Sequence record: MT446411.1
Strand: one strand, 5' to 3'
DNA from: Escherichia virus TH40
DNA: 64,000 nucleotides
Below the pieces are notes generated by a model. The model did no database searches. It had not been told where the DNA came from and saw only the letters and a program-made list of their open reading frames with translations. Position numbers and translations under genes: made by a program. Shown one piece after another: positions 98 through 60,765 of this stretch (position 1 is its first letter; every line of letters starts with the position of its first letter).

Positions 98-127
98 ATT
101 ATGTCATAGCCCCATTTGGTTGTACAC
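98..127 (-). promoter_or_regulatory. early sigma70-type promoter (-35 GTGTAC, 18-nt spacer, -10 CATAAT)
   Basis: Reverse-strand reading GTGTAC-N18-CATAAT followed by RBS and ATG at 70. Confidence 0.45.
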
Positions 128-129
128 AC

Positions 130-1089
130 TTATTTTGAAAAAGGACGAATTAAATGTTGGTTAGCCTTGAAACGTTTAACATAGTCTTCGCGACCCAGGG
201 TGTTGTACATATTCACTACTTCCTGGTAATGTTCCCAGGCATACTCACGAAACCATCCAGAAGTAATGGAGGTGCAGACTTTTTCCAGAGCAATATGGAA
301 GCTCACGGATGGAGAGATACTAAACTCGTTAGGAACCTGCGAACGCTCCAGAGCGAGCACACATGCTTCTTCATAAACCCCTGCCAGTTTAATAACATCA
401 GGGAGTGCTTCAAATTTTTCACGCGAGGTCATGACTTCCGAATCATCCTTCATATAGAACTTATATGCAGGCTTATCAGCAAGCGCCACGGCCTCGTGGA
501 TGGAGTCATGGTCAAGGGTATAGATTGTATCATTAAAGAAAGTTTTCTTGCCCACGTCTAGTTTAGGGTGGCTATATGACAGTGTTTCTGCCTGACGTTG
601 TAACATAATTTTCTGCAGTTCATCATTAAGAACAACACCCTTATTACGAAGGTAATTAATATGGCTCATGGTCTTCAGGAAGAATGGATTGTTCTTCAGG
701 TAACGATGAGACAATTTAATTGCCAGACAAATATCAGGGGTCGCCCAATAGAAACCTGTAAGACGGTCTTTCTTAATATGATTTTCAGCGTATTTCAAGA
801 GACGATAACTTGAGGTGAAATCTTCATCTTGAAGCTCACCAGTAATTTCTCGTACGTTGGTCAGGGCACGGACAATATAAGCTTCAAAATAGGTTTCTTT
901 GCCATTGTACATACATTTAAAAGCTTGGACATCAGGGTTATCCACAGGAACATGAGCACCGAACATACGTGCTTTAAAGTGGTTCCATGAGCCCTGGTCA
1001 GCGATGAAGTCCCAATCAGAGTTTTCAATTTTCTGACTTTCAATCAGACCAGCGTTATGTAATGCACGAGAACCAATAACTAACATCAT
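130..1089 (-). CDS. hypothetical protein (320 aa), N-terminal GS...DxD motif reminiscent of Pol-beta-type nucleotidyltransferase
   Basis: Long reverse ORF 130..1140; start moved to internal ATG-ATG at 1089 which has GAGGAAAATATT RBS; N-terminus MMLVIGSRALHNAG...DWDFIAD. Confidence 0.5.
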   Translation of the reverse strand: MMLVIGSRALHNAGLIESQKIENSDWDFIADQGSWNHFKARMFGAHVPVDNPDVQAFKCMYNGKETYFEAYIVRALTNVREITGELQDEDFTSSYRLLKYAENHIKKDRLTGFYWATPDICLAIKLSHRYLKNNPFFLKTMSHINYLRNKGVVLNDELQKIMLQRQAETLSYSHPKLDVGKKTFFNDTIYTLDHDSIHEAVALADKPAYKFYMKDDSEVMTSREKFEALPDVIKLAGVYEEACVLALERSQVPNEFSISPSVSFHIALEKVCTSITSGWFREYAWEHYQEVVNMYNTLGREDYVKRFKANQHLIRPFSK

Positions 1090-1108
1090 AATATTTTCCT
1101 CAGATAAC

Positions 1109-1339
1109 TTAAATTTCAGCAGCAGAGATATTAGATTCATCTATCATCTCGGAGGCGGACCCCTTAACGATAGGAACCAATTTGCCATAGAGGTCTTCAT
1201 TATAAGGGTCGTTGATACAGTGCGCATCTTCAAAACGAACACCGTAATCAGACTTCTTATAAACGAGACCGTAAATCTTTGTAAACTTAGCGCGACTAAT
1301 TTTTACGGGCTCATCAGCCATTGGAGCATAATACCACAT
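1109..1339 (-). CDS. hypothetical small protein (76 aa)
   Basis: Reverse ORF with GAGGAAAATATT RBS, early-type promoter upstream at 1368-1397. Confidence 0.45.
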   Translation of the reverse strand: MWYYAPMADEPVKISRAKFTKIYGLVYKKSDYGVRFEDAHCINDPYNEDLYGKLVPIVKGSASEMIDESNISAAEI

Positions 1340-1367
1340 AATATTTTCCTCATTAGTTGACGAGATA

Positions 1368-2395: not shown

Positions 2396-2686
2396 TTAAC
2401 ACATCTCAGAAGAGGAGACCCAAGCACCAACGGTAACAACACCATTTTCAACCCGACCGCCATTGGCTTCAATATGATGGGTAAACCATTCAGAGCATTC
2501 ATAACCAACTGGATGATATGTACGGCCGGTGCCGTAATCACCAGTGCTGAATTCGATACCATATTCATCTGCGATTTCTTCACAGTGTTTTTCAATTTCA
2601 GAGGTCTTATTTAGAAGAGAATAGATAGCTTTTTCTGCAGATTTCTCATCATAATACTTGGGGATAGCAATTTCAATTTTATTCAT
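2396..2686 (-). CDS. small protein, tandem paralogue family member (C-terminus AWVSSSEMC)
   Basis: Reverse ORF; conserved C-terminal motif and conserved 3' DNA. Confidence 0.55.
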   Translation of the reverse strand: MNKIEIAIPKYYDEKSAEKAIYSLLNKTSEIEKHCEEIADEYGIEFSTGDYGTGRTYHPVGYECSEWFTHHIEANGGRVENGVVTVGAWVSSSEMC

Positions 2687-3036
2687 GATTTACATTCCTT
2701 AATAAAGGTTTCAAGGTCATTACGTTTTGTTTTGTCTAGGAACTTATTATACTCAGCCATTGCTGAAGCATATCTCTTATATATGGGAGCATTCAAGGCG
2801 TTTGTATAACAGATATCATACACAACCGGGATAAAATAGGCCACAACAGCCGGAGCAATTATCATAAAGAAGCCCATCTCAATAGGCATGACTCCCTCGA
2901 TTGCAGCCATAACCGTGGTCATTACCAGACCAACCAGACCACCGAGCATGGCAGTGACAATCCCTAATAATAAATTGGCACCAATATCATATTCAGCCAA
3001 TTGATAAACATGTGATGCAAGACTAGGCCGTTCCAT
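2683..3036 (-). CDS. small membrane protein (two predicted TM helices)
   Basis: Reverse ORF; start set at internal ATG 3036 with AAGGAGG RBS; hydrophobic stretches LLLGIVTAMLGGLVGLVMTTVMAAI and FFMIIAPAVVAYFIPVV. Confidence 0.5.
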   Translation of the reverse strand: MERPSLASHVYQLAEYDIGANLLLGIVTAMLGGLVGLVMTTVMAAIEGVMPIEMGFFMIIAPAVVAYFIPVVYDICYTNALNAPIYKRYASAMAEYNKFLDKTKRNDLETFIKECKS

Positions 3037-3400
3037 TACGAACCTCCTTAATAAATTCTTCGGCACATTTAATTTTGTGCTCTTCTTGTAGGGAAACACA
3101 TTTTTGTTCCCACTCTTTAACTCGTCCACGATATCCTTTATTCATATGATTTTGATGCCACACATTTATCAATATCATACACAAGACCGTAATAAAAGGA
3201 GCGGCGATTATTAGTGCCCAGGCAACTCCAACACTAATGATATCCATATCCCCACAAAGCACCATCATTATAACCCCAACAATGCATATAGACAGAGCCC
3301 CAAATGGAGGCATAAGGTCTTTATCAATTTTGTCTGCGTATACAAATTTTTCTGGTTTACTTGGTAGATATAGCGTTCGCATTTTGAGCCCCTTTAGCAT
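3023..3400 (-). CDS. small membrane protein (two predicted TM helices)
   Basis: Reverse ORF; likely start at 3400 or 3382 (AAGGGG RBS); hydrophobic segments ICIVGVIMMVLCG and AWALIIAAPFITVLCMILI. Confidence 0.45.
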   Translation of the reverse strand: MLKGLKMRTLYLPSKPEKFVYADKIDKDLMPPFGALSICIVGVIMMVLCGDMDIISVGVAWALIIAAPFITVLCMILINVWHQNHMNKGYRGRVKEWEQKCVSLQEEHKIKCAEEFIKEVRNGTA

Positions 3401-3911
3401 ATTCACGACATTCAGTAATAAAACGATTAAGCTTCCGTTGTTGTTTACGACTCTCTGATGTGTATTCAGCCGCCAAATCAAGAAGTTCAGCTTTATCATA
3501 ATTTTTAATATCAGCATAAGCTGGACGACGGTCAACCATTCCAAAGTGGTCACCATTTTCTAACATCAAATAACATACCAAATGGTCATCATCATCCGCA
3601 TCAATAAGTCGTTTATAATCGCTTGGGTCGTTTAATGCATACACTGAATAACGTAGTCCAGCGAATTCCACTCGTTGGATACCCAGATTTACGTCAATAA
3701 TTTCCAAGGCATCTGCAAAAGAAAGGTCTTCAGCTAAAGCAAAAATAAAAGGCAATTTTGTAGTATCACCACGGCTAGTTGTTCTTCTTAAGAAATCATT
3801 GGAATAACCTAGGTCACCACGGATTCTATAAAGAACTGTATTAGTTTCAGTGGCAAGACCACTACCGCCAAACCATTCTACATTTGATATAAGATTATCG
3901 TATGAAGTCAT
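3357..3911 (-). CDS. hypothetical protein (184 aa)
   Basis: Reverse ORF; start at 3911 with GGAGAGGAG RBS; hairpin 3921-3949 upstream. Confidence 0.5.
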   Translation of the reverse strand: MTSYDNLISNVEWFGGSGLATETNTVLYRIRGDLGYSNDFLRRTTSRGDTTKLPFIFALAEDLSFADALEIIDVNLGIQRVEFAGLRYSVYALNDPSDYKRLIDADDDDHLVCYLMLENGDHFGMVDRRPAYADIKNYDKAELLDLAAEYTSESRKQQRKLNRFITECREYAKGAQNANAISTK

Positions 3912-3920
3912 AATATTCTC

Positions 3921-3949
3921 CTCTCCCAATTAAGGGGGCAAAGCCCCCT
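3921..3949. terminator. GC hairpin GGGGGC-AAA-GCCCCC with T-run (plus-strand orientation)
   Basis: Stem-loop followed by TTTTAT on plus strand. Confidence 0.4.
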
Positions 3950-3955
3950 TTTATC

Positions 3956-4549
3956 TTACTTAAGTGAATTGATGTATTCTTCAATGTCAGCGGATGTGGT
4001 ATCCACACCGACCTGCGGGCCTTTGAAGGTTTCAACACGCATCAGAGTGTCTTCAATATCAATCTTAGTCAATGCAGCGATTTCAACAACATCATCTGCA
4101 GTCGCAATACCCAGGGCAGATACCTTACGAGTTTCGCGGATGTATTCCAGTTTAACAGCTAGTTCCTGACGAGAATCATCCAGCTCTTTAACTTTCAATT
4201 TAATTTCATTACGCATTTCAACATAATCATCTGCCTTCTTACGAAGTTGTTTAGCAGTGCGACGATACAGAAGACCCAGTTTAGCATGGACTTGCACATC
4301 TGCTCCATCAGCAATCAGTTTACGGATTTCACGCTCTTTTGAAGCAGCGAGCTGGTCTTTTTCATTCGCTAACTCGCGGATGCGTTTTTCTTCATTAACA
4401 GACTTAACGTGGGCAGTCTGGAGCTCAGTAATCTTGTCAATCAGGGTAGAAGCCGCTTTGGTATACTGGTCTTCAATAGACAGGTTTTGTGCCATTGCAG
4501 TACCCAGTTTGGAGCGGATGAATTCAACAAGTTTCTTTAAAGTATTCAT
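3956..4549 (-). CDS. hypothetical coiled-coil protein (197 aa)
   Basis: Reverse ORF rich in heptad-like charged/hydrophobic pattern; early-type promoter at 4592-4621. Confidence 0.55.
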
Positions 4550-4591
4550 GGTATTTCCTTCAGTTGGTTAATGTTTTATTATCCAGGGAAC

Positions 4592-4621
4592 ATACTATCA
4601 TGTTCCCGTTAAAGCGTACAC
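4592..4621 (-). promoter_or_regulatory. early promoter (-35 GTGTAC, -10 TAGTAT) with -10 embedded in palindrome GGGAACAT...ATGTTCCC
   Basis: GTGTAC-N18-TAGTAT on reverse strand; 22-bp inverted repeat 4586-4607. Confidence 0.45.
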
Positions 4622-4625
4622 TGAT

Positions 4626-4931
4626 TTAGATTTTATTTTCCTGCACACCATAATACAGTTCATCAGATACAATATTCAGGATGTGGCGAACATATTCATC
4701 ATGGTATTGACAGTCAAAATCAAATGCAACAGTAGTTTCCGCTTCACGAGTGAATTTAACTTGCACATTCAGGTGATTAGTAACGTGAGTTAATTTATCA
4801 GTAAAGAACTCTTTTGCTACCGCCTGCTGGACTTGCACTTTGAACTTGGTGTTGCGAATCATATTTTCAGCAGATGCGAAATTACCAGTTTTATCAAAGT
4901 CAACAAGCGCCAGGTTGATGATGAATTTCAT
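4626..4931 (-). CDS. hypothetical protein (101 aa)
   Basis: Reverse ORF with GGAGAA RBS and early-type promoter at 4971-5000. Confidence 0.5.
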   Translation of the reverse strand: MKFIINLALVDFDKTGNFASAENMIRNTKFKVQVQQAVAKEFFTDKLTHVTNHLNVQVKFTREAETTVAFDFDCQYHDEYVRHILNIVSDELYYGVQENKI

Positions 4932-4970
4932 TTTATTCTCCAGTTTTATTTGGTAACTCAGTATGGAATC

Positions 4971-5000
4971 ATTATGCCTTAAAGCAGGGGGCTTGTATAC
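4971..5000 (-). promoter_or_regulatory. early promoter (-35 GTATAC, -10 CATAAT) with conserved leader CCATACTGAGTTACC
   Basis: Reverse-strand GTATAC-N18-CATAAT; leader motif shared with 5486, 6003 and 43339 promoters. Confidence 0.5.
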
Positions 5001-5011
5001 CCCCTTTTGAA

Positions 5012-5443
5012 TTAAATTTCAAATTCTTTGCGGAAGTTGGAAGCATAAGATTGAACTGATGCTTTGTTGAATCCAAACTCACGCACAATCATATCAATAA
5101 CAGCTCTGCGAGCAGCACCATTAGACATATTAACAGTTTTGAACATATCATAGCATAAATCTTTGTTGCTCATACCGGAGCGTTTAGGTGCCTTACGCTC
5201 AGCTTTTGGTTCAGCTTTAGGAGTAGGTTTAACCTGTCCATCATTCAGACCTTTAAAAATTTTACCCGCCAGAGTTGCCAGTTTAGCAGCTTCGCCACGA
5301 GTGATACCAAATACTGCCGGGTTAAATGAAATACCTTCAGCTGTTAAACGTTTGAAGAACATACGCGCTGCGGATTGCGCTTCAGCTTCAGAAGAGTTGT
5401 TTAATGCCAGTTTAACGTACTTAATCAGTTTTGAAGTTTTCAT
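5012..5443 (-). CDS. hypothetical protein, paralogue A (C-terminal AARRAxID...VQSYASNFRK domain)
   Basis: Reverse ORF, start at internal ATG 5443; C-terminal 35 aa conserved with 5527..5952 product; promoter 5486-5514. Confidence 0.5.
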   Translation of the reverse strand: MKTSKLIKYVKLALNNSSEAEAQSAARMFFKRLTAEGISFNPAVFGITRGEAAKLATLAGKIFKGLNDGQVKPTPKAEPKAERKAPKRSGMSNKDLCYDMFKTVNMSNGAARRAVIDMIVREFGFNKASVQSYASNFRKEFEI

Positions 5444-5485
5444 TTTATTATCCCGTTTGTTTATTTGGTAACTCAGTATGGGATA

Positions 5486-5514
5486 ATTATACACTATCCC
5501 ACCTGGAAGTAAAA
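5486..5514 (-). promoter_or_regulatory. early promoter (-35 GTTTTAC, -10 TATAAT) with conserved leader
   Basis: Reverse-strand GTTTTAC-N17-TATAAT; -10 inside GGGATA...TATCCC palindrome. Confidence 0.5.
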
Positions 5515-5526
5515 CACTTTTCTCAA

Positions 5527-5952
5527 TTATTTTTGAGCTTTGCGGAAGTTAGAAGCATAAGACTGAACAACAGTCTTTTTGATATCATGGGTAGTAACCA
5601 GAACATCAATCAGAGCGCGGCGAGCTGCATTATCATTCATATCAATTTCTGCAAATGCCTGGAAGCAAATGTCACGGGCGTTACCAGATTTGGACTGGAT
5701 TTTTTCTTCTTTAACTTCTTCAATTGGGAATTCAATCATTTCAGCTTGGATTAATTCAATGATGGACTCTTTTGACTGTTTGGTGTTTACCTTCAGTTCA
5801 GAATTAAGGGACTTAGCGATGGCAACAATCTGGGTTGAAGTCAGATGGATAAGGGCATCTTCACGAATGCAGATTTCACATACTTCGTCAGCAACCATTT
5901 TGTTAGTGATGCGGGTAACAGAAAATGCAGAGGTCAGGGTCAGAAAGTTCAT
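5527..5952 (-). CDS. hypothetical protein, paralogue B (C-terminal AARRAxID...VQSYASNFRK domain)
   Basis: Reverse ORF with GGAGAA RBS; promoter 6003-6032. Confidence 0.5.
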   Translation of the reverse strand: MNFLTLTSAFSVTRITNKMVADEVCEICIREDALIHLTSTQIVAIAKSLNSELKVNTKQSKESIIELIQAEMIEFPIEEVKEEKIQSKSGNARDICFQAFAEIDMNDNAARRALIDVLVTTHDIKKTVVQSYASNFRKAQK

Positions 5953-6002
5953 TTTATTTCTCCAAAGTTTTTGTGATTCAGTGTGTAACTCAGTATGGAA
6001 TC

Positions 6003-6032
6003 ATTATGCACCCGGTCAATTCGGATGTACAC
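6003..6032 (-). promoter_or_regulatory. early promoter (-35 GTGTAC, -10 CATAAT) with conserved leader
   Basis: Reverse-strand GTGTAC-N18-CATAAT upstream of 5527..5952. Confidence 0.5.
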
Positions 6033-6079
6033 TACTTTTTGAAGAAATATTAAAAATAAACCCGCCGGAGCGGGTTTGA

Positions 6080-6634
6080 TTAGTTCTTATAAAAACGGAA
6101 GGGATTGATATGAAAGGCTAACATAGCTTTCGGGATAGGACGGGACAGAAGACTTTTTAGCTTCCAACCACAATACACGCGCAGATAAAAGGTGATTCCA
6201 CCAACTTTAAGATAAGGTACGGAAGCGAACACGCCCCATGCATTATCATTCCACATCCAGAGCCAGCCATGGTGAGCTTTATCCGGGGAGCCCGATTCAA
6301 CATCAGGATTACCTTTATAATGGAATTTAGAATCACAATCGCGGCCCAGCTTATGATAAGCAAAATTGTAGGCTTTGTTTCGCCAGAGCCAGGCCACTCG
6401 CTGGAAGTAAACGCCTAACGGCCATTTTCTGATTTTTTCCCAGCGTTTAACATGACCACGGTCGCCATCAATTGGGTTGTCGTATGTCATCATCCAGTCA
6501 AATCCAAACGGAAGCTTACCAGTCTTTTTGTTATGGAACGGCACTACAAATGGTGTAAGGATAACAGCCAGAATCATGGAGATAAAATCCAGTGGCACTA
6601 ACAGAATCCAGCTTAGATATTTTAAAAGTTTCAT
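6080..6634 (-). CDS. hypothetical protein with N-terminal membrane anchor, Trp-rich (184 aa)
   Basis: Reverse ORF; N-terminal hydrophobic helix; TATAAATA-like element and terminator hairpin upstream. Confidence 0.5.
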   Translation of the reverse strand: MKLLKYLSWILLVPLDFISMILAVILTPFVVPFHNKKTGKLPFGFDWMMTYDNPIDGDRGHVKRWEKIRKWPLGVYFQRVAWLWRNKAYNFAYHKLGRDCDSKFHYKGNPDVESGSPDKAHHGWLWMWNDNAWGVFASVPYLKVGGITFYLRVYCGWKLKSLLSRPIPKAMLAFHINPFRFYKN

Positions 6635-6668
6635 AAATTTCCTTAGTTATGGGTACGTTATATTTATA

Positions 6669-6695
6669 AAAAAGCCCCAACCTTTCGGAAGGGGC
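6669..6695 (-). terminator. hairpin AGCCCC...GGGGCT followed by T-run on reverse strand
   Basis: Stem plus TTTTTT downstream of 6734..7117 gene. Confidence 0.45.
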
Positions 6696-6733
6696 TATAC
6701 CTTGTCGGGGTTCCACCTGCAAGGCAAGTGTTC

Positions 6734-7117
6734 TTATCCGCGGGCGAATGCCATTGCAGCGCGTTCGTTGGCACGGTCAGTGATGTTCAAGAATTTATCA
6801 CGAGCGATTTCGATTGGAGCGCCAACCCAGTCAGCGGCTCCATTACCTGGAGATTGTTTAGGACGAACCATATAAGTTGAAACTTTGGAACCAGCTAGTT
6901 TAGCACCAGGTGCAGCGGCATTCTTAACGTCTTTAGCTTTGATACCAAAACCAGTTACAATGCCCCAAGAAACACCATTAACTGGTTTCTTGAACATAAC
7001 ACGGTCGCCAATTGAAACCCCAGCTTTTTCTGGAGCTACTAAAGAAAATTTACCGGCTTCAGTCAGTACGGATTCGGTGATGGTATTGCGATTTAAAAAT
7101 TCTGCATATGTAAGCAT
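6734..7117 (-). CDS. internal-protein-like protein with capsid targeting sequence-like N-terminus (MLTYAEFLNRNTITE)
   Basis: Reverse ORF; N-terminus resembles T4 IPI/IPII/IPIII capsid targeting sequence MKTYQEFIAE; TATAAATA late promoter at 7149-7156. Confidence 0.45.
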   Translation of the reverse strand: MLTYAEFLNRNTITESVLTEAGKFSLVAPEKAGVSIGDRVMFKKPVNGVSWGIVTGFGIKAKDVKNAAAPGAKLAGSKVSTYMVRPKQSPGNGAADWVGAPIEIARDKFLNITDRANERAAMAFARG

Positions 7118-7148
7118 TTTGTTTTTCCATTATTAGGGTTGTTGTTAA

Positions 7149-7156
7149 TATTTATA
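7149..7156 (-). promoter_or_regulatory. late promoter TATAAATA
   Basis: Exact TATAAATA on reverse strand about 30 nt upstream of 6734..7117 start. Confidence 0.45.
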
Positions 7157-7175
7157 TTCCATAGTACCGGATGCA

Positions 7176-7223
7176 CCACCCGCTCGGATTTCTCATACTA
7201 CCGGGCGCACCGCCCGCTCTGGA
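7176..7223. repeat. tandem direct repeat (about 24 bp x2) TACCGG(A/G)(T/C)GCACC(A/G)CCCGCTC(G/T)GGA, each forming a short GC hairpin
   Basis: Two adjacent near-identical units between the tRNA cluster and the 6734..7117 gene. Confidence 0.5.
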
Positions 7224-7358
7224 AAAACTCCGTAAAAGGTGCGCCGTTTCAGCTGTGATATAAGGGGCCATTAACAAAACATAAAGATTTATTAATGTCA
7301 GTCCTTAAACAGGGAACTTCAGTCCGACGACTTACCGGTAGCGACCCGGTTTCTTGTT

Positions 7359-7434
7359 TGGTCGAGACAGTAGGAATCGAACCTACGACCCAGGACTTAG
7401 AAGGTCCTTGCTCTTCCTTCTGAGCTATGCCTCG
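7359..7434 (-). tRNA. tRNA-Arg (anticodon UCU), CCA encoded
   Basis: Hand-folded cloverleaf: acceptor CGAGGCA/TGTCTCG, D stem GCTC/GAGC, anticodon stem AGGAC/GTCCT with loop CTTCTAA, T arm GTAGG-TTCGATT-CCTAC, discriminator A, CCA. Confidence 0.85.
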
Positions 7435-7442
7435 TGCTTGTT

Positions 7443-7567
7443 CATAGCGGGGTGGACTCGAACCACCAATATTAAGTCACTCATGCTCCAAGCATGCAGG
7501 GCACTTACCCCGGACGGAATCGAACCGCATCTACAATACCTATCGCCATGATAATTTAAAATAAGTT
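7443..7567 (-). ncRNA. tRNA-like stable RNA candidate (contains two T-arm-like hairpins, no canonical acceptor stem); position matches the T4 RNA C/RNA D species between tRNA-Ile and tRNA-Arg
   Basis: GGTGG-TTCGAGT-CCACC and GCGG-TTCGATT-CCGT hairpins on reverse strand; no 7-bp acceptor pairing could be found. Confidence 0.3.
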
Positions 7568-7641
7568 TGGTGGCCCTGGGTGGAATCGAACCACCATCCA
7601 GCGATTATGAGTCGCTCGCTTGACCGTCCAGCTACAGGGCC
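7568..7641 (-). tRNA. tRNA with CAU anticodon (Met, or Ile as in T4 convention), CCA encoded
   Basis: Hand-folded cloverleaf: acceptor GGCCCTG/CAGGGCC, anticodon stem AGCGA/TCGCT with loop CTCATAA, T arm GGTGG-TTCGATT-CCACC, discriminator A, CCA. Confidence 0.8.
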
Positions 7642-7719
7642 TTAATTCTATTATGAAAGGCTCTTTGAGGGAAGAACCTTTGGTAATAGAGGGTACTTAT
7701 TAATAATAACGCGTTTTTA

Positions 7720-8196
7720 TTAAAGCATATCAAGTGCTTTAACGTTCAGGATTTGGATTTCTTCTTCGATGATGTATAATTTCACCCACGAAACTACGCG
7801 TATAAAATCACTATCATATTCCACTGGCTCGCCCAGCAATTCCTGGAGAGAACACAATAATTCAAATTCCTGGTCATTGTCACCTTCAACCAGATTTTCA
7901 ATACAAAGTGTTTTGTTAATGAATTCAGGAGTTAATTGACCAGATTTTACACCAGATTCAATGTGTGCGATAATCAAGTCTTTAACTATGTCCCATTCTG
8001 AATTACCACATTTATTGCGGTTATTACAATGAGAGCCTTGAAAAAGTTCCAGGATATATTTGTACTGCTGGATTTCTTGTTCTTCTACACCAAATATTGT
8101 CTGGGTTTTATAGTTGTCACCATCATTTTCCAAGGTTTCAATTTCAATCACATAACCTTTAGGGATGGTCTGACCAAATTTAATATTCATAATCAA
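7720..8196 (-). CDS. hypothetical protein (158 aa)
   Basis: Reverse ORF, start overlaps upstream stop (ATGA). Confidence 0.5.
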   Translation of the reverse strand: MIMNIKFGQTIPKGYVIEIETLENDGDNYKTQTIFGVEEQEIQQYKYILELFQGSHCNNRNKCGNSEWDIVKDLIIAHIESGVKSGQLTPEFINKTLCIENLVEGDNDQEFELLCSLQELLGEPVEYDSDFIRVVSWVKLYIIEEEIQILNVKALDML

Positions 8197-8573
8197 CCTT
8201 CATCAACAATAGTATGGGTATTAGCATTAACAATCTGCCACCAGTCAAAACGGTTAGAACCATATTGAGGCTTATTCTCGTTTTCTTTAATGATATCACG
8301 CAGTTCATCTTCGGTAGCGGCTTTTGCGATTAGGTCTGCATAACCGCCACGGGGATAATAGTTATCGCCAGCAAAGAGTAAAAAGTTTGTTTTGATATTC
8401 TTGAATTCTTCAAGAGTAATAACCGTTCCAGATGGTTGAACAATATCTACGTAACTATATCCTAATTTCTGGGCATTATCTACCGCTTCAAGCAGGGTGT
8501 CATGTGCCCACCCAATTTGACATTCTGGTTTTTCAGATGGATTTGCCTGATAATCTGCATACACTTTATACAT
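8193..8573 (-). CDS. hypothetical protein (126 aa)
   Basis: Reverse ORF; start placed at internal ATG 8573 with AAAGGTGAG RBS immediately after stop of 8575..8760. Confidence 0.45.
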   Translation of the reverse strand: MYKVYADYQANPSEKPECQIGWAHDTLLEAVDNAQKLGYSYVDIVQPSGTVITLEEFKNIKTNFLLFAGDNYYPRGGYADLIAKAATEDELRDIIKENENKPQYGSNRFDWWQIVNANTHTIVDEG

Positions 8574-8574
8574 T

Positions 8575-8760
8575 TTACTCACCTTTAGAGATTTTATCCA
8601 TAACGAAAGAGATTGAACCAATTAAGAATGCAACTACTAAAGAGATTATATTCTCAGAAGTTGAAAGCATATTCAACATAAAGCCAGCAAACATGCTAAA
8701 ACCAAAAGCGGTAACAGCAACAAGGGCAGTAACATTTCTAATTAATTCGCAACGTTTCAT
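8575..8760 (-). CDS. small hydrophobic/membrane protein (61 aa)
   Basis: Reverse ORF with GAGGAGAA RBS and early-type promoter 8789-8818. Confidence 0.4.
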   Translation of the reverse strand: MKRCELIRNVTALVAVTAFGFSMFAGFMLNMLSTSENIISLVVAFLIGSISFVMDKISKGE

Positions 8761-8788
8761 TTTATTCTCCTCAGTAGTTAATGGGATA

Positions 8789-8818
8789 ATTATGCACTAT
8801 CCCATTCAAAAGTACACT
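8789..8818 (-). promoter_or_regulatory. early promoter (-35 GTGTAC, -10 CATAAT) within GGGATA...TATCCC palindrome
   Basis: Reverse-strand GTGTAC-N18-CATAAT upstream of 8575..8760. Confidence 0.45.
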
Positions 8819-9051
8819 TATTTTTTACGGAAAATTGATTTATACTGTTTAGCCCATTTCTCGATAACTTCTGCCGGACCCTGGATAACAAAATAGTCCC
8901 CAAACTCTTCACCGCCGAGCTGACCGTAATTATCTAAGGCGTCGCGGAGAGTTCCATAAGGCATTTCGCCCATTTTATCTTTCTTGCCGGTGTAAATGAA
9001 TTGCACTTTAACATCAGCAGTTTCATTAATAAATTCTTGATAAGTTTTCAT
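8818..9051 (-). CDS. internal-protein-like protein, N-terminal capsid targeting sequence MKTYQEFINE
   Basis: N-terminal 10 aa match T4 internal protein capsid targeting sequence (MKTYQEFIAE) known to be cleaved by gp21 after Glu; early promoter 9077-9106. Confidence 0.65.
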   Translation of the reverse strand: MKTYQEFINETADVKVQFIYTGKKDKMGEMPYGTLRDALDNYGQLGGEEFGDYFVIQGPAEVIEKWAKQYKSIFRKK

Positions 9052-9076
9052 GTTGTCTCCAGTAGTTGATGGGATA

Positions 9077-9106
9077 ATTATACTGCAGTTATCCCAGCGC
9101 GTATAC
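9077..9106 (-). promoter_or_regulatory. early promoter (-35 GTATAC, -10 TATAAT) within GGGATAA...TTATCCC palindrome
   Basis: Reverse-strand GTATAC-N18-TATAAT upstream of internal-protein-like gene 8818..9051. Confidence 0.5.
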
Positions 9107-30233: not shown

Positions 30234-30869
30234 ATGACTACTTACTATAGACTTTATGTATCAACATTTGAAACATCTAATGGGATAATGGTATATGGCG
30301 GTAAACGCCATTCACATTATGAAGATTCTAAAGCGGATAGTTATTTCGGTTCTGGTACTATTGTCAAGCGAGCTAAACAAAAATACGGAAGGAAATGTTT
30401 AGTCGACATTACATGGTCTAAACCTTTTGAATCGCCTGCCCTATTAAAAGAAGCCGAAGCCTTACTAGTCAGTGAGCTTTTAGAAAGTTTCGATAATTGT
30501 GCAAATTTACATCCAACAGGGGGAGGCGGACCAGAAGGTTATAGTTGTCCAGAAGATTCCCCTGCCTTTGGTAAAAAGAGAACAGCAGAATCAAGAAAAC
30601 GAATGTCAGACGCAGCAAAACAAAGGGAATGGTCAGAAGAAGGATTAAAACGTCGTAAAGAATCAACAGCTCGAATGTGGATTGATTTTAAGGACAGACA
30701 TCCAGATTTTTCTGATGATAAAAATCCGGCCGCGCGTAAAATTATTACCGGCGACCTAGAATTTTGTACCGGAAGAAAATGTGCAGAATATTATTCGATA
30801 ACACCGGCGACGGTCATTTACAGATGTAAAAGTACAGCCGAAAAATGGAAATTATGGAATTATGCGTAA
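30234..30869 (+). CDS. putative free-standing homing endonuclease (GIY-YIG-like N-terminus, NUMOD3-like motif)
   Basis: Extra gene between 13 and 14 (not present in T4); N-terminal YRLYV-x10-MVYGGKR; [18 protein letters not shown] resembles NUMOD3 repeat. Confidence 0.5.
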
Positions 30870-43015: not shown

Positions 43016-43297
43016 TCATACCATACCATTTAAATGAACTTCTACCCGGCGCTTGATGAGGTCTCTGAAGTTAACATTGTTTTCTTGAAGTTTCAACCAG
43101 TTACCATTTTTATCTTTAGTGTGAGTAGAATAATTACCATTCCACCAGAAATCAGTGTCATATGCTAAGTTTTCATATTTTTTAACTAGTTTGTTCAGAG
43201 CATTACCATTAACACCATTTGGGTATTTGTTGACCAATGCAATAACTTCAATTTCCAATTTTTTAAAGGTGTTCAGAAGGAAAGTTGCTTTGTTCAT
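43016..43297 (-). CDS. hypothetical protein (93 aa) on opposite strand between genes 23 and 24
   Basis: Reverse ORF with GGAG RBS and early-type promoter 43339-43368 carrying the conserved leader motif. Confidence 0.45.
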   Translation of the reverse strand: MNKATFLLNTFKKLEIEVIALVNKYPNGVNGNALNKLVKKYENLAYDTDFWWNGNYSTHTKDKNGNWLKLQENNVNFRDLIKRRVEVHLNGMV

Positions 43298-43338
43298 TTT
43301 TAAACTCCAGGTTTTGTTTGTTAACTCAGTATGGAATC

Positions 43339-43368
43339 ATTATGTCTTATCTTAATCTGGTTGTAAAC
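43339..43368 (-). promoter_or_regulatory. early promoter (-35 GTTTAC, -10 CATAAT) with conserved leader, divergent from gene 24 late promoter
   Basis: Reverse-strand GTTTAC-N18-CATAAT followed by GATTCCATACTGAGTTAAC. Confidence 0.5.
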
Positions 43369-43374
43369 AACTTT

Positions 43375-43382
43375 TATAAATA
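43375..43382 (+). promoter_or_regulatory. late promoter TATAAATA (gene 24)
   Basis: Exact consensus 27 nt upstream of ATG. Confidence 0.6.
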
Positions 43383-43408: not shown

Positions 43409-44689
43409 ATGGCAAAGATTAACAAATTACTGCGCGAGTCAACTATTACTACCAGCAACTCCTTGGGCCGCCCGAATCTTGTTGCTTTGACCCGCGCTAC
43501 GACTAAATTGATTTACCGCGATATCATCGCTGAACAACGTACTAACCAACCTGTTGCTGCACTGTATGGTGTTAAATATCTTACTCCTGATAATGAATTC
43601 AGTTTCCAGACGGGCGCTACTTATGGAGGCGAAGTCGGTTCTAAAGACCGCACAACTATTCCAGAATTAACTACAGCCACTCAGCCTGTGGCTAAAGGCG
43701 AATATGTAAAATACCAAAATATCGTTTACAAAGCTCTGGTTGATAATCCATTTGCATCGACCACAGAAACAGTGTTATCTGATGTTCTGCAAGAAGGTCT
43801 TATTGCATCGACTATTCGCCTTGTTCCTGATGCCGCACACACTGAAAAATTCGAAGCCGGTGATGTTGAAATTAGCAATGCTGTATTCCAGGTTAATAAA
43901 TGGAATGCTCCGGTTAAAACACGTAAATTGAAAACTGCATTAACTGTTGAACTTGCTCAGGATATGGAAGCAAATGGTTTTAACGCTCCTGCTTTCTTGG
44001 AAGACCTGCTTGCCACTATTATGGCAGATGAAATTAACAAAGATGTTCTTCAGTCTCTTATTACCGTTTCCAAGCGTTATAAAGTAACTGGCGTTTCTGA
44101 CAATGGCACCATCGATTTAACATATGATGCAGCTCCAGAAGGCGCACGTAAACTGTATGAACTGGTTTGCGAAATGAACTCCGAAATTCAGAAAACTACA
44201 TCTTATTCCGGTACCTTTGTTGTTGCCTCTAGCCGTGTTGCTGCTATGTTGGCCGGTTCTGGTTGGTTGAAACACAGACCAGAAGACGAACAGTGGCTCC
44301 CCGAAACAGCGTACGGTTATTTGATTAATGGCCTCCCTGTATTCTGTGATGTTAACAGTCCATTGGATTATGTAACTGTTGGTGTTAAAGAAAATTACGG
44401 CGGAAACGAAGTCGTAGGCTCAATTTTCTATGCTCCTTATACCGAAGGCCTGGACTTGGATGATGAAGAGCACGTTGGTGCGTTTAAGGTCATTGTGGAC
44501 CCAGACAGCTTGCAGCCATCTATCTCTCTGATGGTTCGTTACGCACTTTCAGCTAACCCGTACACCGTTGCTAAAGACGATAAAGAAGCTCGTATTATCG
44601 ATGCAACCAATATGGATTTAATGGCCGGTCAGAGCAATATGTCTTATCTGCTCGGTGTTAAACTTCCGCCAATCATTTATGAGGCGTAA
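43409..44689 (+). CDS. 24: gp24 head vertex protein
   Basis: 426 aa; MAKINKLLRESTITTSNSLGRPNLVALTRATTKLIY... matches T4 gp24; late promoter 43375-43382. Confidence 0.9.
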   Translation: MAKINKLLRESTITTSNSLGRPNLVALTRATTKLIYRDIIAEQRTNQPVAALYGVKYLTPDNEFSFQTGATYGGEVGSKDRTTIPELTTATQPVAKGEYVKYQNIVYKALVDNPFASTTETVLSDVLQEGLIASTIRLVPDAAHTEKFEAGDVEISNAVFQVNKWNAPVKTRKLKTALTVELAQDMEANGFNAPAFLEDLLATIMADEINKDVLQSLITVSKRYKVTGVSDNGTIDLTYDAAPEGARKLYELVCEMNSEIQKTTSYSGTFVVASSRVAAMLAGSGWLKHRPEDEQWLPETAYGYLINGLPVFCDVNSPLDYVTVGVKENYGGNEVVGSIFYAPYTEGLDLDDEEHVGAFKVIVDPDSLQPSISLMVRYALSANPYTVAKDDKEARIIDATNMDLMAGQSNMSYLLGVKLPPIIYEA

Positions 44690-47393: not shown

Positions 47394-47593
47394 TTCTTCA
47401 CCTTTTTGTTATTCAAACGTTTACGATAAACAATCTTTTCTTTCGCTTTAAATTTAGCTTTGGCTTGTTCTACATCAACCCAGGCCTTTGCCATCTCTTT
47501 AGCAGTCCCGCCTAATACCTTGGCGATTTCAATAAATGTCATGCCAGATTCATGCAGAAAATGTACTTTAACCTTATCCATAATGATTCTCAT
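47390..47593 (-). CDS. hypothetical small basic protein with HTH-like segment (gene 24.2/24.3 region)
   Basis: Reverse ORF; MTFIEIAKVLGGTAKEMAKAW helix-turn-helix-like. Confidence 0.45.
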   Translation of the reverse strand: MRIIMDKVKVHFLHESGMTFIEIAKVLGGTAKEMAKAWVDVEQAKAKFKAKEKIVYRKRLNNKKVKK

Positions 47594-47734
47594 GTTGAGT
47601 TAGTGAAGCTATCTTAACATGGAATTTTTAACTTGTAAACATGATTTTTATGCCAGATGAACAATTGTTATGGTATGACCACAAGGACTTACCGGAGAAG
47701 GGGCCCAGGCAATGTTTGCTCAGTACCATAAAAA

Positions 47735-47760: not shown

Positions 47761-48894
47761 TTAATAAACGTAATCGTATATAATACCAGTTTCTAAAGCG
47801 GTGCGATGAATAACTCGACCATTACGAGATTCTTGTACATCAACCTCTGGATAGTCGGTAATCATTTTTTGAAGTGTGTATCGGTGCAAATAATACGGGC
47901 TATCCGGGTCATCAGTTTTCCAGTCTTGGCCGGCAAGAGTCATTTTCTGAATTTCATCCATAACCCACCAACCACACCAGATATAAGCTGAATTACGTAC
48001 TGGCAATGGGTGAATATATGGTAATTCGCCATCTGGAACTGGTGCGACTTTAGCCGTGACTGTTACATTACCAGTTTTGGTAACGGTTACAGGGTTATAA
48101 TCTGTAGCAGATACAACAACAGAAACTTCAATTAACTGGGAACCTTCGGCGCTTGTATCGATTGCTAAAGTATCCGTGGTACCAGCGACTGGTGAACCAT
48201 CTTTCTTCCAAGAATAGGCAAAAGTAGCACCGGCAGGCGCACCGGCTACAGTAGCTTTAAAAGAAGCCGGAGTTCCTGAAGGAACATTAATAGAGGTCGG
48301 TGCTAAAGTAACAGAAACACCCGACATAGTTTTCTTAACAAAAGTTACCGCAGCTCCTTTAGATGCGGTGCCATTATTATAATCGGGTGCAGAAACAGTA
48401 ACTTCACAGTTCAATGTATAATTTGCTTCTGCTGATTCGGTGACGGTAATAGTTTTACCAGTTTGACCTGCGATTACGCTAGTGTTACGTTTCCAAACGT
48501 AAGCGATTGTTGCACCAGAAGGAGCGCCTGTCACGTTAGCAGTAACAACTTGAGATTGCCCCACTTCTTTAGTAACAGAGGCAGGGTCTAAAGTCAATGT
48601 AATAGCAGGCATTGTTTTATTCTGGATAGTTAAAGTTGTCTCAGCCTCAGCAGTTTCCGGTTCACCGTCTGCCGGAGTGGTAGTTGCAACAACTTTAATA
48701 GTCTTACTGCCTGCTGGGCCAACAGCGACATAAGCCATTGCTGCAGTCACAGAAGATTGAGGAACGCCATCAACGGTCCATACAAATGATTCAACACCTT
48801 CAGCTGCAGCACCAGAGCCGGTTGCAGTGAAATTGGTTGTTGCTCCAATAACGGCCGTAGCCGCCAAAGGAGCAATAGCTACGGTATAAGCCAT
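47761..48894 (-). CDS. hoc: Hoc highly immunogenic outer capsid protein (Ig-like domains)
   Basis: 377 aa; ...TKTGNVTVTAKVAPVPDGELPYIHPLP...YIWCGWWVMDEIQKMT... matches T4 Hoc C-terminus. Confidence 0.9.
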   Translation of the reverse strand: MAYTVAIAPLAATAVIGATTNFTATGSGAAAEGVESFVWTVDGVPQSSVTAAMAYVAVGPAGSKTIKVVATTTPADGEPETAEAETTLTIQNKTMPAITLTLDPASVTKEVGQSQVVTANVTGAPSGATIAYVWKRNTSVIAGQTGKTITVTESAEANYTLNCEVTVSAPDYNNGTASKGAAVTFVKKTMSGVSVTLAPTSINVPSGTPASFKATVAGAPAGATFAYSWKKDGSPVAGTTDTLAIDTSAEGSQLIEVSVVVSATDYNPVTVTKTGNVTVTAKVAPVPDGELPYIHPLPVRNSAYIWCGWWVMDEIQKMTLAGQDWKTDDPDSPYYLHRYTLQKMITDYPEVDVQESRNGRVIHRTALETGIIYDYVY

Positions 48895-49623: not shown

Positions 49624-51123
49624 ATGGATATTAAAATCAACTTTCTAAATTTTAGTCACGTGCATGTTGAATGTGAAGATGGAATCTTCTACGAACTCCG
49701 TGATTACTTCAGCTTCGAAGCTGAAAACTATCGCTTCAATCCAAAATTCAAGCAGGGAGTTTGGGACGGACGAATCCGCCTCCTGGATTACAATCGTAAA
49801 TTACCATACGGTTTGGTTAATCAAATTAAAAAGTTCGCTGACCAGTTTGGCTATTCATTCTGGATTGACCCACAAATCACCGAGAAAGAAGAAATCTCTC
49901 GCGAAGAATTCGACAAATGGGTCGAGTCAAAAGAAATCTATTCAGGCAATACTAAGATAACGCCCCATTGGTATCAATCTGACGCCGTATATGATGGTCT
50001 GGTCAACAGAAGAAAGATTCTGAACTTACCTACGTCTGCAGGTAAAAGTCTCATCCAGGCGCTTCTGGCGCGATATTATCTCGAGAACTATGAAGGCAAG
50101 GTACTTATCCTTGTTCCTACAACCGCGCTTGTTGACCAGATGATTAATGACTTTGTTGATTATCGTCTGTTCCCTCGTGAAGCTTGTCTGGGTATTCGTT
50201 CTGGTACCAAACGCGATTCTGATGCGATGATTTATGTATCGACTTATCAGACGGCTGTAAAACAACCTAAAGAATGGTTTGAACAGTTTGGTCAGTTTAT
50301 GAATGACGAATGTCATATGGCTACAGGTAAATCAATTTCGACGGTTATCGAAGGCCTTACGAATTGTATGTTTAAATTTGGTTTGTCCGGTTCACTCCGT
50401 GACGGCAAAGCCAACCTTATGCAATATATGGGTCTGTTTGGTGATATCTTTAAACCAGTATCAACATCTAAATTGATGGAAGATGGTCAGGTCACTGACC
50501 TTAAAATAAATAGTATTTTCCTTCGTTACCCTGATGAATTTACCGTTAAAATGAAAGGTAAAACTTATCAGGATGAAATTAAGGTAATTACAAAAGCTAC
50601 ACGCCGAAATAAATGGGTAACAAATCTTGCTCTCAAGCTTGCTAAAAAAGATGAAAACGTCTTTTTGATGTTTAAGAATATCGAGCACGGTAAATCGATG
50701 TTTGAAATGCTTAAGGAAGCTGGTCATGAGAAAGTGTATTATGTTTCCGGGGAAGTTGATACCGAAACTCGTAATGCATTAAAGGTCATGGCAGAGAATG
50801 GAAAGGGAATTATCGTTGTAGCTTCATATGGCGTATTCTCGACGGGTATTTCCGTTAAAAACCTCCATCATATTATTTTCGCCCACCCGGTCAAGTCAAA
50901 GGTAATTGTACTCCAGACAATTGGTCGTGTGCTTCGAAAACATGAATCCAAATCACAAGCAAACGTTTTTGATATCGTGGATGATATGGGGGTTAAACCT
51001 AAATCGGTAAATGCTAAAAAGAAATATGTTCATTTGAACTTTGCCCTAAAACATGGTCTTGAACGTATACAACGATATGCTGATGAACGTTTTAACTATG
51101 TAATTAAACAGGTGGAAATTTGA
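49624..51123 (+). CDS. uvsW: UvsW DNA/RNA helicase (SF2)
   Basis: MDIKINFLNFSHVHVECEDG...; Walker A PTSAGKS, DECH box; late promoter 49588-49595. Confidence 0.9.
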   Translation: MDIKINFLNFSHVHVECEDGIFYELRDYFSFEAENYRFNPKFKQGVWDGRIRLLDYNRKLPYGLVNQIKKFADQFGYSFWIDPQITEKEEISREEFDKWVESKEIYSGNTKITPHWYQSDAVYDGLVNRRKILNLPTSAGKSLIQALLARYYLENYEGKVLILVPTTALVDQMINDFVDYRLFPREACLGIRSGTKRDSDAMIYVSTYQTAVKQPKEWFEQFGQFMNDECHMATGKSISTVIEGLTNCMFKFGLSGSLRDGKANLMQYMGLFGDIFKPVSTSKLMEDGQVTDLKINSIFLRYPDEFTVKMKGKTYQDEIKVITKATRRNKWVTNLALKLAKKDENVFLMFKNIEHGKSMFEMLKEAGHEKVYYVSGEVDTETRNALKVMAENGKGIIVVASYGVFSTGISVKNLHHIIFAHPVKSKVIVLQTIGRVLRKHESKSQANVFDIVDDMGVKPKSVNAKKKYVHLNFALKHGLERIQRYADERFNYVIKQVEI

Positions 51124-51815
51124 ATTATCAAAAAATATATGATGATTTAATTGGGAGTCGAAAGGCTTCCAAACCGATTGGATATACAGAATCTCACCAT
51201 ATCATTCCAGAATGTATGGGTGGGCCTGATACACAAGAAAACAGAGTCAACCTTACTCCGGAAGAACATTTCATTGCACATAAATTATTGGCCAAAATTC
51301 ATCCCAATCATTACGGTCTTATAAAGGCCGTCATTGCTATGGGTATGAGCTCTCGGACACACCAACGACAATTTAATAAATCGTATGGATGGGAGCGTAG
51401 ACAAATGTCAGTTCTTCAAACGGGTGAAGGTAATCCTTTTTATGGTAAGCACCATACTGAAGAACATAAAGAATATATGAGTCAATTATTGAAGGGTCGC
51501 AAAATAACTTGGGCTGATAAAATATCCGTGACAAAGAAAGCGAATCCGTATAAATACTCTCAAGCACAATGTCAAGCTATATCAGAAAGAAATAAAGGTG
51601 AAGGCAATTGGATGTATGGTAAATCACATACACCAGAAGCATCGAAGAAAATTTCAGATAAAGCGAAAGAACGTTATAAAGACCCGTCTAAAAATCCGGC
51701 AGCTAAAAAGGTTGTTATAGGTGGAGTTGAATATGGTTCAATGAAACAAGCTTCAGAAGCTACGGGGCTTTCTAAATATAAAATTAGAAATTTAATTAAA
51801 CAGGTGGAAATATAA
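51120..51815 (+). CDS. HNH homing endonuclease (free-standing), NUMOD-like repeats
   Basis: ESHHIIPECMGGPDTQENRVNLTPEEHFIAHK HNH motif; repeated GNxxYGKxHTxE modules; TTG start overlapping uvsW stop; flanked by 19-bp direct repeat. Confidence 0.75.
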   Translation: MNYQKIYDDLIGSRKASKPIGYTESHHIIPECMGGPDTQENRVNLTPEEHFIAHKLLAKIHPNHYGLIKAVIAMGMSSRTHQRQFNKSYGWERRQMSVLQTGEGNPFYGKHHTEEHKEYMSQLLKGRKITWADKISVTKKANPYKYSQAQCQAISERNKGEGNWMYGKSHTPEASKKISDKAKERYKDPSKNPAAKKVVIGGVEYGSMKQASEATGLSKYKIRNLIKQVEI

Positions 51816-60702: not shown

Positions 60703-60765
60703 TTTGTTTTCCTCATGTGCAATTGATATGAACATTGTATCGCACTTCCTTGTGCTTGTAAACCC

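Follow-up and report, generated by a model that had tools for sequence, protein, structure and literature searches.

Four predicted early promoters with a common downstream motif

The window studied here, a stretch of 64,000 nucleotides from Escherichia virus TH40 (record MT446411.1), is 93-99% identical to phages of the genus Gaprivervirus (Straboviridae, Tevenvirinae, ~170 kb), for instance EAWsc9, UPEC07, TH22, VR26 and VR7. Its counterpart in EAWsc9 covers the e-tRNA-ipI hyperplastic region, the baseplate/neck/head late block, and onwards. The element in question is a short motif, CCATACTGAGTTA, which follows four predicted early promoters of the T4 type, referred to below as copies 1 to 4. 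The e-tRNA hyperplastic region holds copies 1-3. Copy 4, within the late structural block as the initial annotation had placed it, is flanked by the genes of the major capsid protein (gp23) and the vertex protein (gp24) and precedes a minus-strand open reading frame (ORF) of 93 aa. The cargo of all four copies consists of small proteins without Pfam domain, which belong to PHROG families of unknown function, and the genes after copies 2 and 3 have a C-terminal domain in common.

The initial annotation of this DNA described a shared leader after four dispersed early promoters, and a scan of the 64-kb window bears this out. Indeed, CCATACTGAGTTA has four exact occurrences, at 4954-4966, 5469-5481, 5986-5998 and 43322-43334, all on the minus strand and each 5 nt downstream of the -10 hexamer of a T4-type early promoter. 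The promoter coordinates proposed there (Table 1) proved exact, and the AT-rich stretch and ribosome-binding site expected after the motif correspond, at each copy, to an A-rich stretch followed by a GGAG or GGAU Shine-Dalgarno sequence and then by an ATG. Two details apply to part of the copies: the -35 pattern GT(G/T/A)TAC describes promoters 1, 3 and 4 but not promoter 2 (TTTTAC), and the GATT said to precede the motif is absent from this second promoter, whose discriminator is TATC. The invariant core of the motif is the 12-mer CATACTGAGTTA, which occupies positions -1 to +11 relative to the predicted transcription start.

The observation is real and far beyond chance. When up to two mismatches were allowed, the 14-mer gave seven matches, as compared with 0.35 expected from dinucleotide-preserving shuffles, and none of 100 shuffles reached seven. 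The three further near matches (7993, 14934 and 41661) are within coding sequence and have no promoter context. The motif is missing from the other early promoters of the window (98-127, 8789-8817, 9077-9106, 60734-60763 and others). Some additional resemblances were discarded: a plus-strand near-copy at 47578-47602 coincides with the beginning of an ORF on the minus strand, hence a chance match; an 11-nt tandem similarity, CATAATGATTC/CATACTGAGTT (8/11), occurs in the GATTC subtype only and is not robust; and the reverse complement, which is similar to a tRNA D-arm (TAGCTCAGT), has 10 matches in T4 at up to two mismatches, where chance gives ~7.5.

Conservation within and beyond the genus

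The whole-genome count suggested in the initial annotation was performed on EAWsc9 and revealed 11 copies linked to promoters, of which seven are exact and four differ at one position. Every one of them is on the early strand and directly follows a -10, and no copy was found outside promoters in this entire genome. When the 11 copies are aligned on the motif, the 12-mer carries 1.96 bits per position, with 131/132 nucleotides identical, and the other elements are less constrained: 1.84 bits for the -10 hexamer, 1.33 for the -35 hexamer, 1.32 for the 5-nt discriminator and 0.64 for the spacer. Since the distance from the motif to the -10 is constant (5 nt) whereas that to the Shine-Dalgarno sequence varies from 9 to 23 nt, the motif is anchored to the promoter and not to the ribosome-binding site.

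A 50-nt cassette query matched 48 phage records, with 9-13 places in every Gaprivervirus and one weak place in each of the other genera, except for Morganella phage MP1, which has four. The 13-mer is exact in MP1 and Providencia phage PSTRCR_127 (Gualtarvirus), in IME341 (Dhakavirus) and in ECp13 (Tequatrovirus), though the discriminator (TATCC, AATCC, GGTCC), the spacer and the distal leader of these copies all differ, which places the onset of conservation at about -1/+1. In MP1, IME341 and ECp13 the cassette stands before the same gene as at the EAWsc9 copy 49367; thus, either this site is old or the cassette has moved together with the gene. A 15-mer scan of IMG/VR returned 107 matches in 99 stretches, of which 18 had promoter context, all on phage contigs of T4-like size, the -35 filter having missed a few further promoter copies. 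The matches without promoter context that were inspected looked like chance occurrences in unrelated contigs.

These data bear on the simplest alternative, namely that the similarity is a neutral leftover from recent duplication of one promoter cassette and has no function by itself. Tandem paralogous genes indeed follow copies 2 and 3, and leader variants move between sites, as the leader of window copy 2 differs from that of its EAWsc9 orthologue, which equals copy 1. However, the spacers are unrelated inside otherwise near-identical cassettes whose flanking elements are near-invariant, and this excludes a simple recent duplication. Moreover, the motif stays exact in distant genera despite divergence of the leader remainder and of the neighbouring genes, and its number of copies is stable across the genus. 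We consider such a neutral origin extremely improbable. The earlier claim that the leader is conserved apart from local duplication is thus strengthened by the unrelated spacers, by the dispersed copies of EAWsc9 and other Gaprivervirus genomes and by the exact occurrences in three other genera.

Stem-loops at the promoters

Promoter-early stem-loops (PeSLs) were defined by Arbiol et al. 2010 (PMC2839356) and Comeau et al. 2014 (PMC4122927) in RB49/phi1, T4/PST and KVP40/nt-1. According to these authors, a PeSL is a conserved intergenic sequence of ~100 bp composed of an AT-rich region, an early promoter, a stem-loop, a Shine-Dalgarno sequence and an ATG, in which the stem-loop, containing G-T pairs, is mostly situated between -35 and -10 or overlaps the -10. 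PeSLs cluster beside ORFans in hyperplastic regions, with crossovers mapped to the interval from the -10 to the Shine-Dalgarno/ATG (PMC2839356, PMC4122927).

In the window, a stem-loop is located over the -35 in copy 1, over the -10 in copy 2 and, as a terminator hairpin, 25 nt upstream in copy 3. No stem-loop was found upstream of or overlapping the promoter of copy 4, because this copy resides in a divergent intergenic region. Across EAWsc9, an exact inverted repeat of at least 6 bp joins the spacer to the discriminator/start region in 14 of 38 early promoters, against 2.85 expected after re-pairing of spacers and downstream regions (maximum 9 in 1000 permutations), and T4 early promoters are likewise enriched for inverted repeats around the -10. 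The internal mismatches in the promoter helices are G-T in four cases and A-C in none; these small numbers fit a sense-strand RNA. The stem-loop of copy 2 would, according to the predicted fold, form only in read-through RNA or in single-stranded DNA.

Several related arrangements were observed. The -10 hexamer is in the loop of an inverted repeat at 5474-5505, 8775-8806, 9060-9097 and 98-127, with arm sequences that vary between promoters (covariation), and the positions of the inverted repeats agree with those of the PeSL stem-loops of Arbiol et al. 2010. Another early promoter, GTGTAC-N18-TAGTAT at 4591-4620 (minus strand), has GGGAACA/TGTTCCC arms around its -10 and precedes an e.6-like gene. 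At EAWsc9 72630 and 87519, the discriminator (and the -10) pairs with the downstream Shine-Dalgarno/ATG (GTCCTCA...TGAGGAC; CATAATGACCTTTCT...AGAGAGGCCATTATG), so that the ribosome site would be sequestered in read-through RNA only. A similar arrangement is known for the late transcripts of T4 genes e and soc.

Table 1. Positions of the cassette parts within the 64-kb window
Feature	Position	Strand	Remarks
Copy 1, invariant 12-mer CATACTGAGTTA	4954..4965	-	start A predicted at 4964, given a spacing of 6 nt from the -10
Copy 1, T4-type early promoter GTATAC-N18-CATAAT	4971..5000	-
Copy 1, G5/C5 stem-loop with the -35 hexamer in the loop, then CTGCTTT	4986..5005	-	PeSL stem-loop; putative terminator/attenuator for the upstream gene
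Copy 1, GGAGAATAAAATG, Shine-Dalgarno and start codon of 101-aa ORF (4626-4931)	4929..4941	-	exact RegB/S1 strong-site consensus (PMC3014915)
Copy 2, invariant 12-mer	5469..5480	-
Copy 2, early promoter TTTTAC-N17-TATAAT	5486..5514	-
Copy 2, stem-loop, arms GGTGGGATAGT / ATTATCCCATAC on both sides of the -10 hexamer	5474..5505	-	predicted centroid -16.1 kcal/mol
Copy 2, GGGATAATAAAATG, GGAU-type Shine-Dalgarno and ATG of 143-aa ORF (5012-5443)	5441..5454	-
Copy 3, invariant 12-mer	5986..5997	-
Copy 3, early promoter GTGTAC-N18-CATAAT	6003..6032	-	TTGACC in the spacer, 16 nt before CATACT
Copy 3, intrinsic-terminator-like hairpin AAACCCGCTCCGGCGGGTTT and ATTTTT	6058..6077	-	25 nt upstream of the -35
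Copy 3, GGAGAAATAAAATG, Shine-Dalgarno and ATG of 141-aa ORF (5527-5952)	5950..5963	-	paralogue of the copy 2 gene
Copy 4, invariant 12-mer	43322..43333	-
Copy 4, early promoter GTTTAC-N18-CATAAT	43339..43368	-	gp23-gp24 intergenic region
Copy 4, GGAGTTTAAAAATG, Shine-Dalgarno and ATG of 93-aa ORF (43016-43297)	43295..43308	-
Family B cassette GTGTAC-N17-CATAAT, TATCCCATTAACTACTGA, GGAGAATAAAATG	8760..8817	-	start region also in T4 early promoters
Family B cassette, promoter GTATAC-N18-TATAAT, then TATCCCATCAACTACTGGAG	9077..9106	-

Further promoter-like sequences are associated with individual cassettes. The late-promoter consensus of gene 24, TATAAATA, at 43375-43382 on the plus strand (the gene 24 ATG being at 43409), is inside the A/T-rich upstream region of the copy 4 early promoter, on the opposite strand, so that two divergent promoters overlap. 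In two cassettes with the 'cacactgaatcac' leader (window 5992-6019, minus strand, and EAWsc9 67836), the spacer includes TTGACC/T, separated by exactly 16 nt from the CATACT downstream, which creates a second promoter-like arrangement shifted by 11 bp relative to the main promoter. A MotA box, indicative of a middle promoter, was also considered and rejected: TGCTTTA is found in copy 1 only and is 14 nt from CATACT, outside the range of 11-13 nt.

A second start-region family

Among the 38 predicted early promoters of EAWsc9, 11 have the present motif as their start region (family A) and 15 another one, YYATCAACTACTG...GGAG (family B). The latter is also a common start region in T4, being found in 7 of the 23 T4 promoters examined; the T4 promoter at 73543 is orthologous to the family B promoter at 8789 in the window. 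T4 has, in addition, a repeated cassette of its own, TACTATACAACTATCAACTACTGATACGGATTTGGAGAATAAAATG, at no fewer than four sites (at least 4). The occurrence of family B in T4, together with this T4 cassette, implies that a conserved start region/leader is general to T4-type early promoters. Judging from these alignments, family A is a lineage-specific version of the conserved T4-type early start region. The published T4 early-promoter logos consulted end at the start site (PMC1524935), and in the literature searched we found no description of Gaprivervirus early promoters or of this cassette, nor of a conserved T4 initial transcribed sequence.

Recombination junctions between related phages

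To locate junctions, window 2500-8500 was compared with VR26, TH44, RZ and CJ20, while EAWsc9 was aligned over the whole window. At copy 2, TH44 and CJ20 have an additional gene of ~370 bp, and since window 5441-5490, from the -10 to the leader, aligns on both sides of it, the insert is flanked by two cassette copies. RZ lacks window 4586-4929, which contains the 101-aa gene after copy 1, and the deletion is between two GGAKAATAAAA repeats. Homology to VR26 is confined to the part beginning at 6055, a little before the copy 3 -35, and the upstream gene is different. A 76-aa gene module at 1089-1355 (minus strand) is flanked by a 16-nt direct repeat, TGAGGAAAATATTATG, comprising a Shine-Dalgarno sequence and an ATG, and other genes are present there in EAWsc9. 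The gene resembling those of the internal proteins (IP), between the family B cassettes 8789 and 9077, has its body replaced in EAWsc9. Finally, EAWsc9, VR20 and a third phage contig share a promoter with a unique spacer (atcagtatggagtctatg), and the gene behind it is a different one in each of the three, the junction being immediately after CCATACTGAGTTACCAAAC.

The coincidence of junction and cassette was seen in five rearrangements examined. On the strength of these alignments, the cassette repeat serves related phages as the place of homologous exchange, by which gene modules are inserted, lost or replaced. The initial annotation had missed this aspect, namely a mobile promoter cassette of the PeSL type with rearrangement junctions inside.

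The junctions could also be explained if the motif were the recognition site of a site-specific nuclease or recombinase driving cassette exchange, for instance a homing endonuclease, of which these phages have many. The gene-swap junctions adjoin the motif, homing endonuclease genes are present in the window, and a helper protein was raised as a possibility by the PeSL authors (PMC2839356). On the other hand, no endonuclease gene is linked to the cassettes, junctions are also found at Shine-Dalgarno repeats and upstream of the -35, as general homologous recombination predicts, and short homology suffices for T4 recombination (PMC2839356). We find it very improbable that a dedicated enzyme reads the motif.

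Other features were noted in the course of these comparisons. The distal junction of the RZ deletion is the GGATAATAAAA repeat of the promoter at 4591-4620. A homing-endonuclease-like ORF of 211 aa (phrog_314; 30234-30869, plus strand) between the neck genes gp13 and gp14, and a homing endonuclease of 231 aa (NUMOD3 motifs, phrog_655; 51120-51815, plus strand) at the uvsW/uvsW.1 junction, are both absent from EAWsc9. Within the minus-strand ORF 47761-48894 (377 aa; 283 aa in EAWsc9), the segment 48333-48584 represents ~250 bp extra relative to EAWsc9 and may be an added repeat domain. Two tRNA genes are present on the minus strand (7362-7434 and 7571-7641), and the tRNA region 7354-7645 is among the segments differing from EAWsc9.

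The leader RNA and its candidate regulators

The initial annotation interpreted the leader as a post-transcriptional control site and suggested a structure prediction, a translational repressor or an RNase target. The leaders of promoter-initiated transcripts are predicted to be unstructured (-0.4 to -2.9 kcal/mol, z-scores of at least 0), and Rfam searches at gathering and permissive thresholds returned no family for the leaders, only two tRNAs and chance matches on the copy 3 terminator. Neither a conserved structure nor a match to a curated model, as would be expected of a structured cis-regulatory RNA leader, was thus found. The complementarity of the 5' 11-mer to Escherichia coli 16S rRNA was no better than that of shuffles (p~0.2), and the value for 23S rRNA (p~0.03) is not meaningful after two tests. 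A search of the phage genome for an antisense partner of the motif yielded none beyond the promoter spacers that form the PeSL hairpin.

The proposal of an RNase target holds for another part of the leader than the motif. The Shine-Dalgarno segment GGAGAAUAAAA is an exact match to GG*AGRAYARAA, the consensus of strong sites for the RegB endoribonuclease with ribosomal protein S1 (Uzan & Miller 2010, PMC3014915, citing Durand et al. 2006). Exact consensus sites are present in the window at 4931-4941 (copy 1) and at 8760-8770, and copies 2-4 have near matches. In EAWsc9, whose annotation includes regB and regA, GGAGRAYARAA has 12 exact matches, every one of which is on the early strand and ends in ATG, with none on the late strand; 8/12 are in family A cassettes and 3/12 in family B, and 8 of the 11 family A copies have the exact consensus. 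In the predicted folds of the leaders the site is unpaired, and its GGAG stands in an intergenic translation initiation region, as for known RegB/S1 sites. A plausible RNase target is therefore GGAGAAUAAAA at the Shine-Dalgarno sequence and not the CCATACTGAGTTAC motif.

A repressor site of the RegA type at the motif, on the other hand, is not supported. RegA operators overlap or abut the AUG (PMC3014915) and are A+U-rich and unstructured, while the 12-mer is 20-35 nt upstream of the AUG at a variable distance from the Shine-Dalgarno sequence. The absence of structure, Rfam match and complementary partner noted above likewise gives no support to such a site. Nearer to the AUG, the AAUAAAAUG segment could be a candidate RegA operator.

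Transferred to the 12-mer, the idea of the initial annotation would be that AUACUGAGUUA, the predicted beginning of these transcripts, is a 5'-terminal RNA tag read by a phage or host factor (a translational repressor, an RNase or a 5'-end modifying enzyme), which would make ~11 messages one post-transcriptional regulon. The sharp onset of conservation at -1/+1 next to a varying discriminator, with exactness across four genera, argues for such a tag, as does the predicted single-stranded state of the motif in promoter-initiated transcripts. In some copies, the hairpin would hide the motif in read-through RNA only, and EAWsc9 72284 and Morganella MP1 have spacers complementary to the motif. Nevertheless, the searches for a structure, an Rfam family and a complementary partner were negative, the spacing to the Shine-Dalgarno sequence and AUG varies, and the motif never occurs away from a promoter in EAWsc9. 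Moreover, the known regulators of T4 have other target sites, namely the AUG for RegA and GGAG for RegB (PMC3014915). Taking both sides together, we regard the RNA tag as unlikely.

A probable portable early-expression cassette

The abrupt onset of invariance at +1 beside a variable discriminator also leaves room for an action on DNA or RNA polymerase, with the motif as a -10-like element re-bound by sigma-70 in a promoter-proximal pause like that of lambda PR', as the -10 of a second overlapping promoter, or as an operator for early shut-off. A -10-like hexamer in the initial transcribed region, CATACT (-1 to +5), is found in all copies, which is weak evidence alone; its positions 2 and 6 are occupied by the key A and T, respectively, and in copy 3 it was scored as a -10 with TTGACC-N16. 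In lambda PR', AACGAT at +1 to +6 is followed by GGGTTAAT (AACGAT-GGGTTAA), and here CATACT is followed by GAGTTAAC/CC. Furthermore, the shut-off mechanism of early promoters has been described as not understood (PMC3014915). However, the identity to lambda is 7/12 in a post-hoc comparison of weak significance, a -35-like hexamer for CATACT is missing in most copies, and family B early promoters have no good -10-like element yet belong to the same promoter class. The 12-mer is also non-palindromic, unlike the site of a dimeric repressor. An effect on polymerase or DNA thus appears decidedly unlikely.

The explanation that we favour, and which is probably correct, is that the motif represents the region of transcription start in a portable cassette for early expression, of the PeSL type, which is present in front of ~11 small accessory genes per genome. 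Such a cassette begins with a stem-loop or terminator that would provide insulation against upstream transcription, followed by an A-rich upstream region with a T4-type -35 (GTGTAC/GTTTAC). A free 17/18-bp spacer, (C/T)ATAAT and a 5-nt discriminator then lead to the invariant CATACTGAGTTA, so that, given the usual distance of 6-7 nt from the -10, all transcripts would begin with AUACUGAGUUA. A short, unstructured A-rich linker and GGAGAAUAAAAUG complete the unit.

In the mechanism that we propose, host sigma-70 RNA polymerase would fire the cassette promoters immediately after infection. The 12-mer is most likely, as far as sequence can tell, the initial transcribed sequence of a very strong promoter, and it could be kept invariant because output from promoters whose contacts are very strong is limited by clearance. 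A second cause of invariance may be that modules with a consensus junction stay exchangeable, uniformity being maintained via cassette exchange. The open A-rich leader and the GGAG Shine-Dalgarno sequence would ensure strong translation, until phage RegB together with ribosomal protein S1 would later cut inside GGAG and shut the messages off.

Several points weigh against this explanation. The starts, promoter activity, RegB cleavage and recombination are inferred from sequence and from the T4/RB49 literature. Promoter clearance normally needs no exact 12-nt sequence, and a varying discriminator next to an invariant +1 to +11 across genera would fit a sequence-specific reader, RNA or protein, at least as well. 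The EAWsc9 copies were gathered by similarity to the 12-mer (at most one mismatch), which inflates its apparent conservation, and a diverged A-like start, CCTTACTGAATAA, is found upstream of asiA in EAWsc9. In addition, the exact RegB consensus is present in only 1/4 window copies, and regB is outside the window. That the invariant first 11 nucleotides (AUACUGAGUUA) have a role beyond that of promoter sequence, either as a shared 5'-terminal tag or as a sigma-70 re-binding/pause signal marking a subset of ~11 immediate-early messages for common handling, seems rather unlikely. If this were true, such a signal would be conserved in genera as different as Gaprivervirus and Gualtarvirus and would be relevant to the unexplained abrupt shut-off of T4-type early expression; a specific reader of the 12-mer would define a new early regulon.

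With the portable cassette as the preferred explanation, the present data provide a clean, quantified example of a PeSL-type cassette in another T4-like genus, in which the most constrained part is the transcription-start block, not the -35/-10 hexamers, and in which gene modules are exchanged exactly there. For annotation, the motif would mark ~11 immediate-early transcription units per genome, for which 5' ends and sensitivity to RegB can be predicted. In phage engineering, the cassette could serve as a natural 'landing pad' and a compact unit for strong early expression.

Comparison with known systems

With the RegB/S1 sites of T4 early mRNAs, the cassette shares an exact GGAGAAUAAAA in an unstructured intergenic early leader, in a genus that has regB. 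It differs in that the similarity concerns the 3' part of the leader and not the flagged motif, and is exact in copy 1 only of the four. Like the lambda PR' pause element, the motif opens the transcribed region with a -10-like hexamer, whose second base is A and whose sixth is T, followed by G-GTTAA; unlike it, there is resemblance alone, at 7/12 positions, without the context of a Q-like antiterminator.

The T4 early promoters with extended consensus (Hinton 2010, PMC2988021; Nolan et al. 2006, PMC1524935) have the same GTTTAC-type -35, 17/18-bp spacer, -10, A-rich upstream region and C-rich -3 to -1, and the start region ATCAACTACTG is common to T4 and to most other early promoters of the present phage. 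In contrast, the ATACTGAGTTA start region has no match in the first 100 kb of T4. The flanks of the T-even IP loci (Repoila et al. 1994, discussed in PMC2839356) are likewise early-promoter-based repeats around small variable genes, and the family B cassettes of the window (8789-9106) flank an IP-like gene, whereas the A-type leader is found beyond IP loci.

The closest counterparts are the PeSLs. The ~100-bp anatomy from AT-rich region to ATG recurs here, with four predicted promoters having good -35/-10 hexamers and A-rich upstream sequence, stem-loops at copies 1-3 and their genome-wide enrichment in EAWsc9, and conservation that extends through the Shine-Dalgarno sequence and ATG of the downstream gene. 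Many dispersed copies precede ORFans in hyperplastic regions, and indel or replacement junctions fall in the cassette in five rearrangements. Unlike the PeSLs described so far, the cassette belongs to Gaprivervirus, which is not among the described lineages, and its promoter is of the T4 type, GTGTAC instead of TTGACA. Its best-conserved part is a 12-nt block at the predicted transcription start, present also in Gualtarvirus, one Dhakavirus and one Tequatrovirus. All sequence-level features of the class are matched; a further trait of PeSLs is the excision of mini-circles through recombination between flanking cassettes. By these sequence features, we assign the element to the known PeSL class of mobile early promoter cassettes, as a lineage-specific member.

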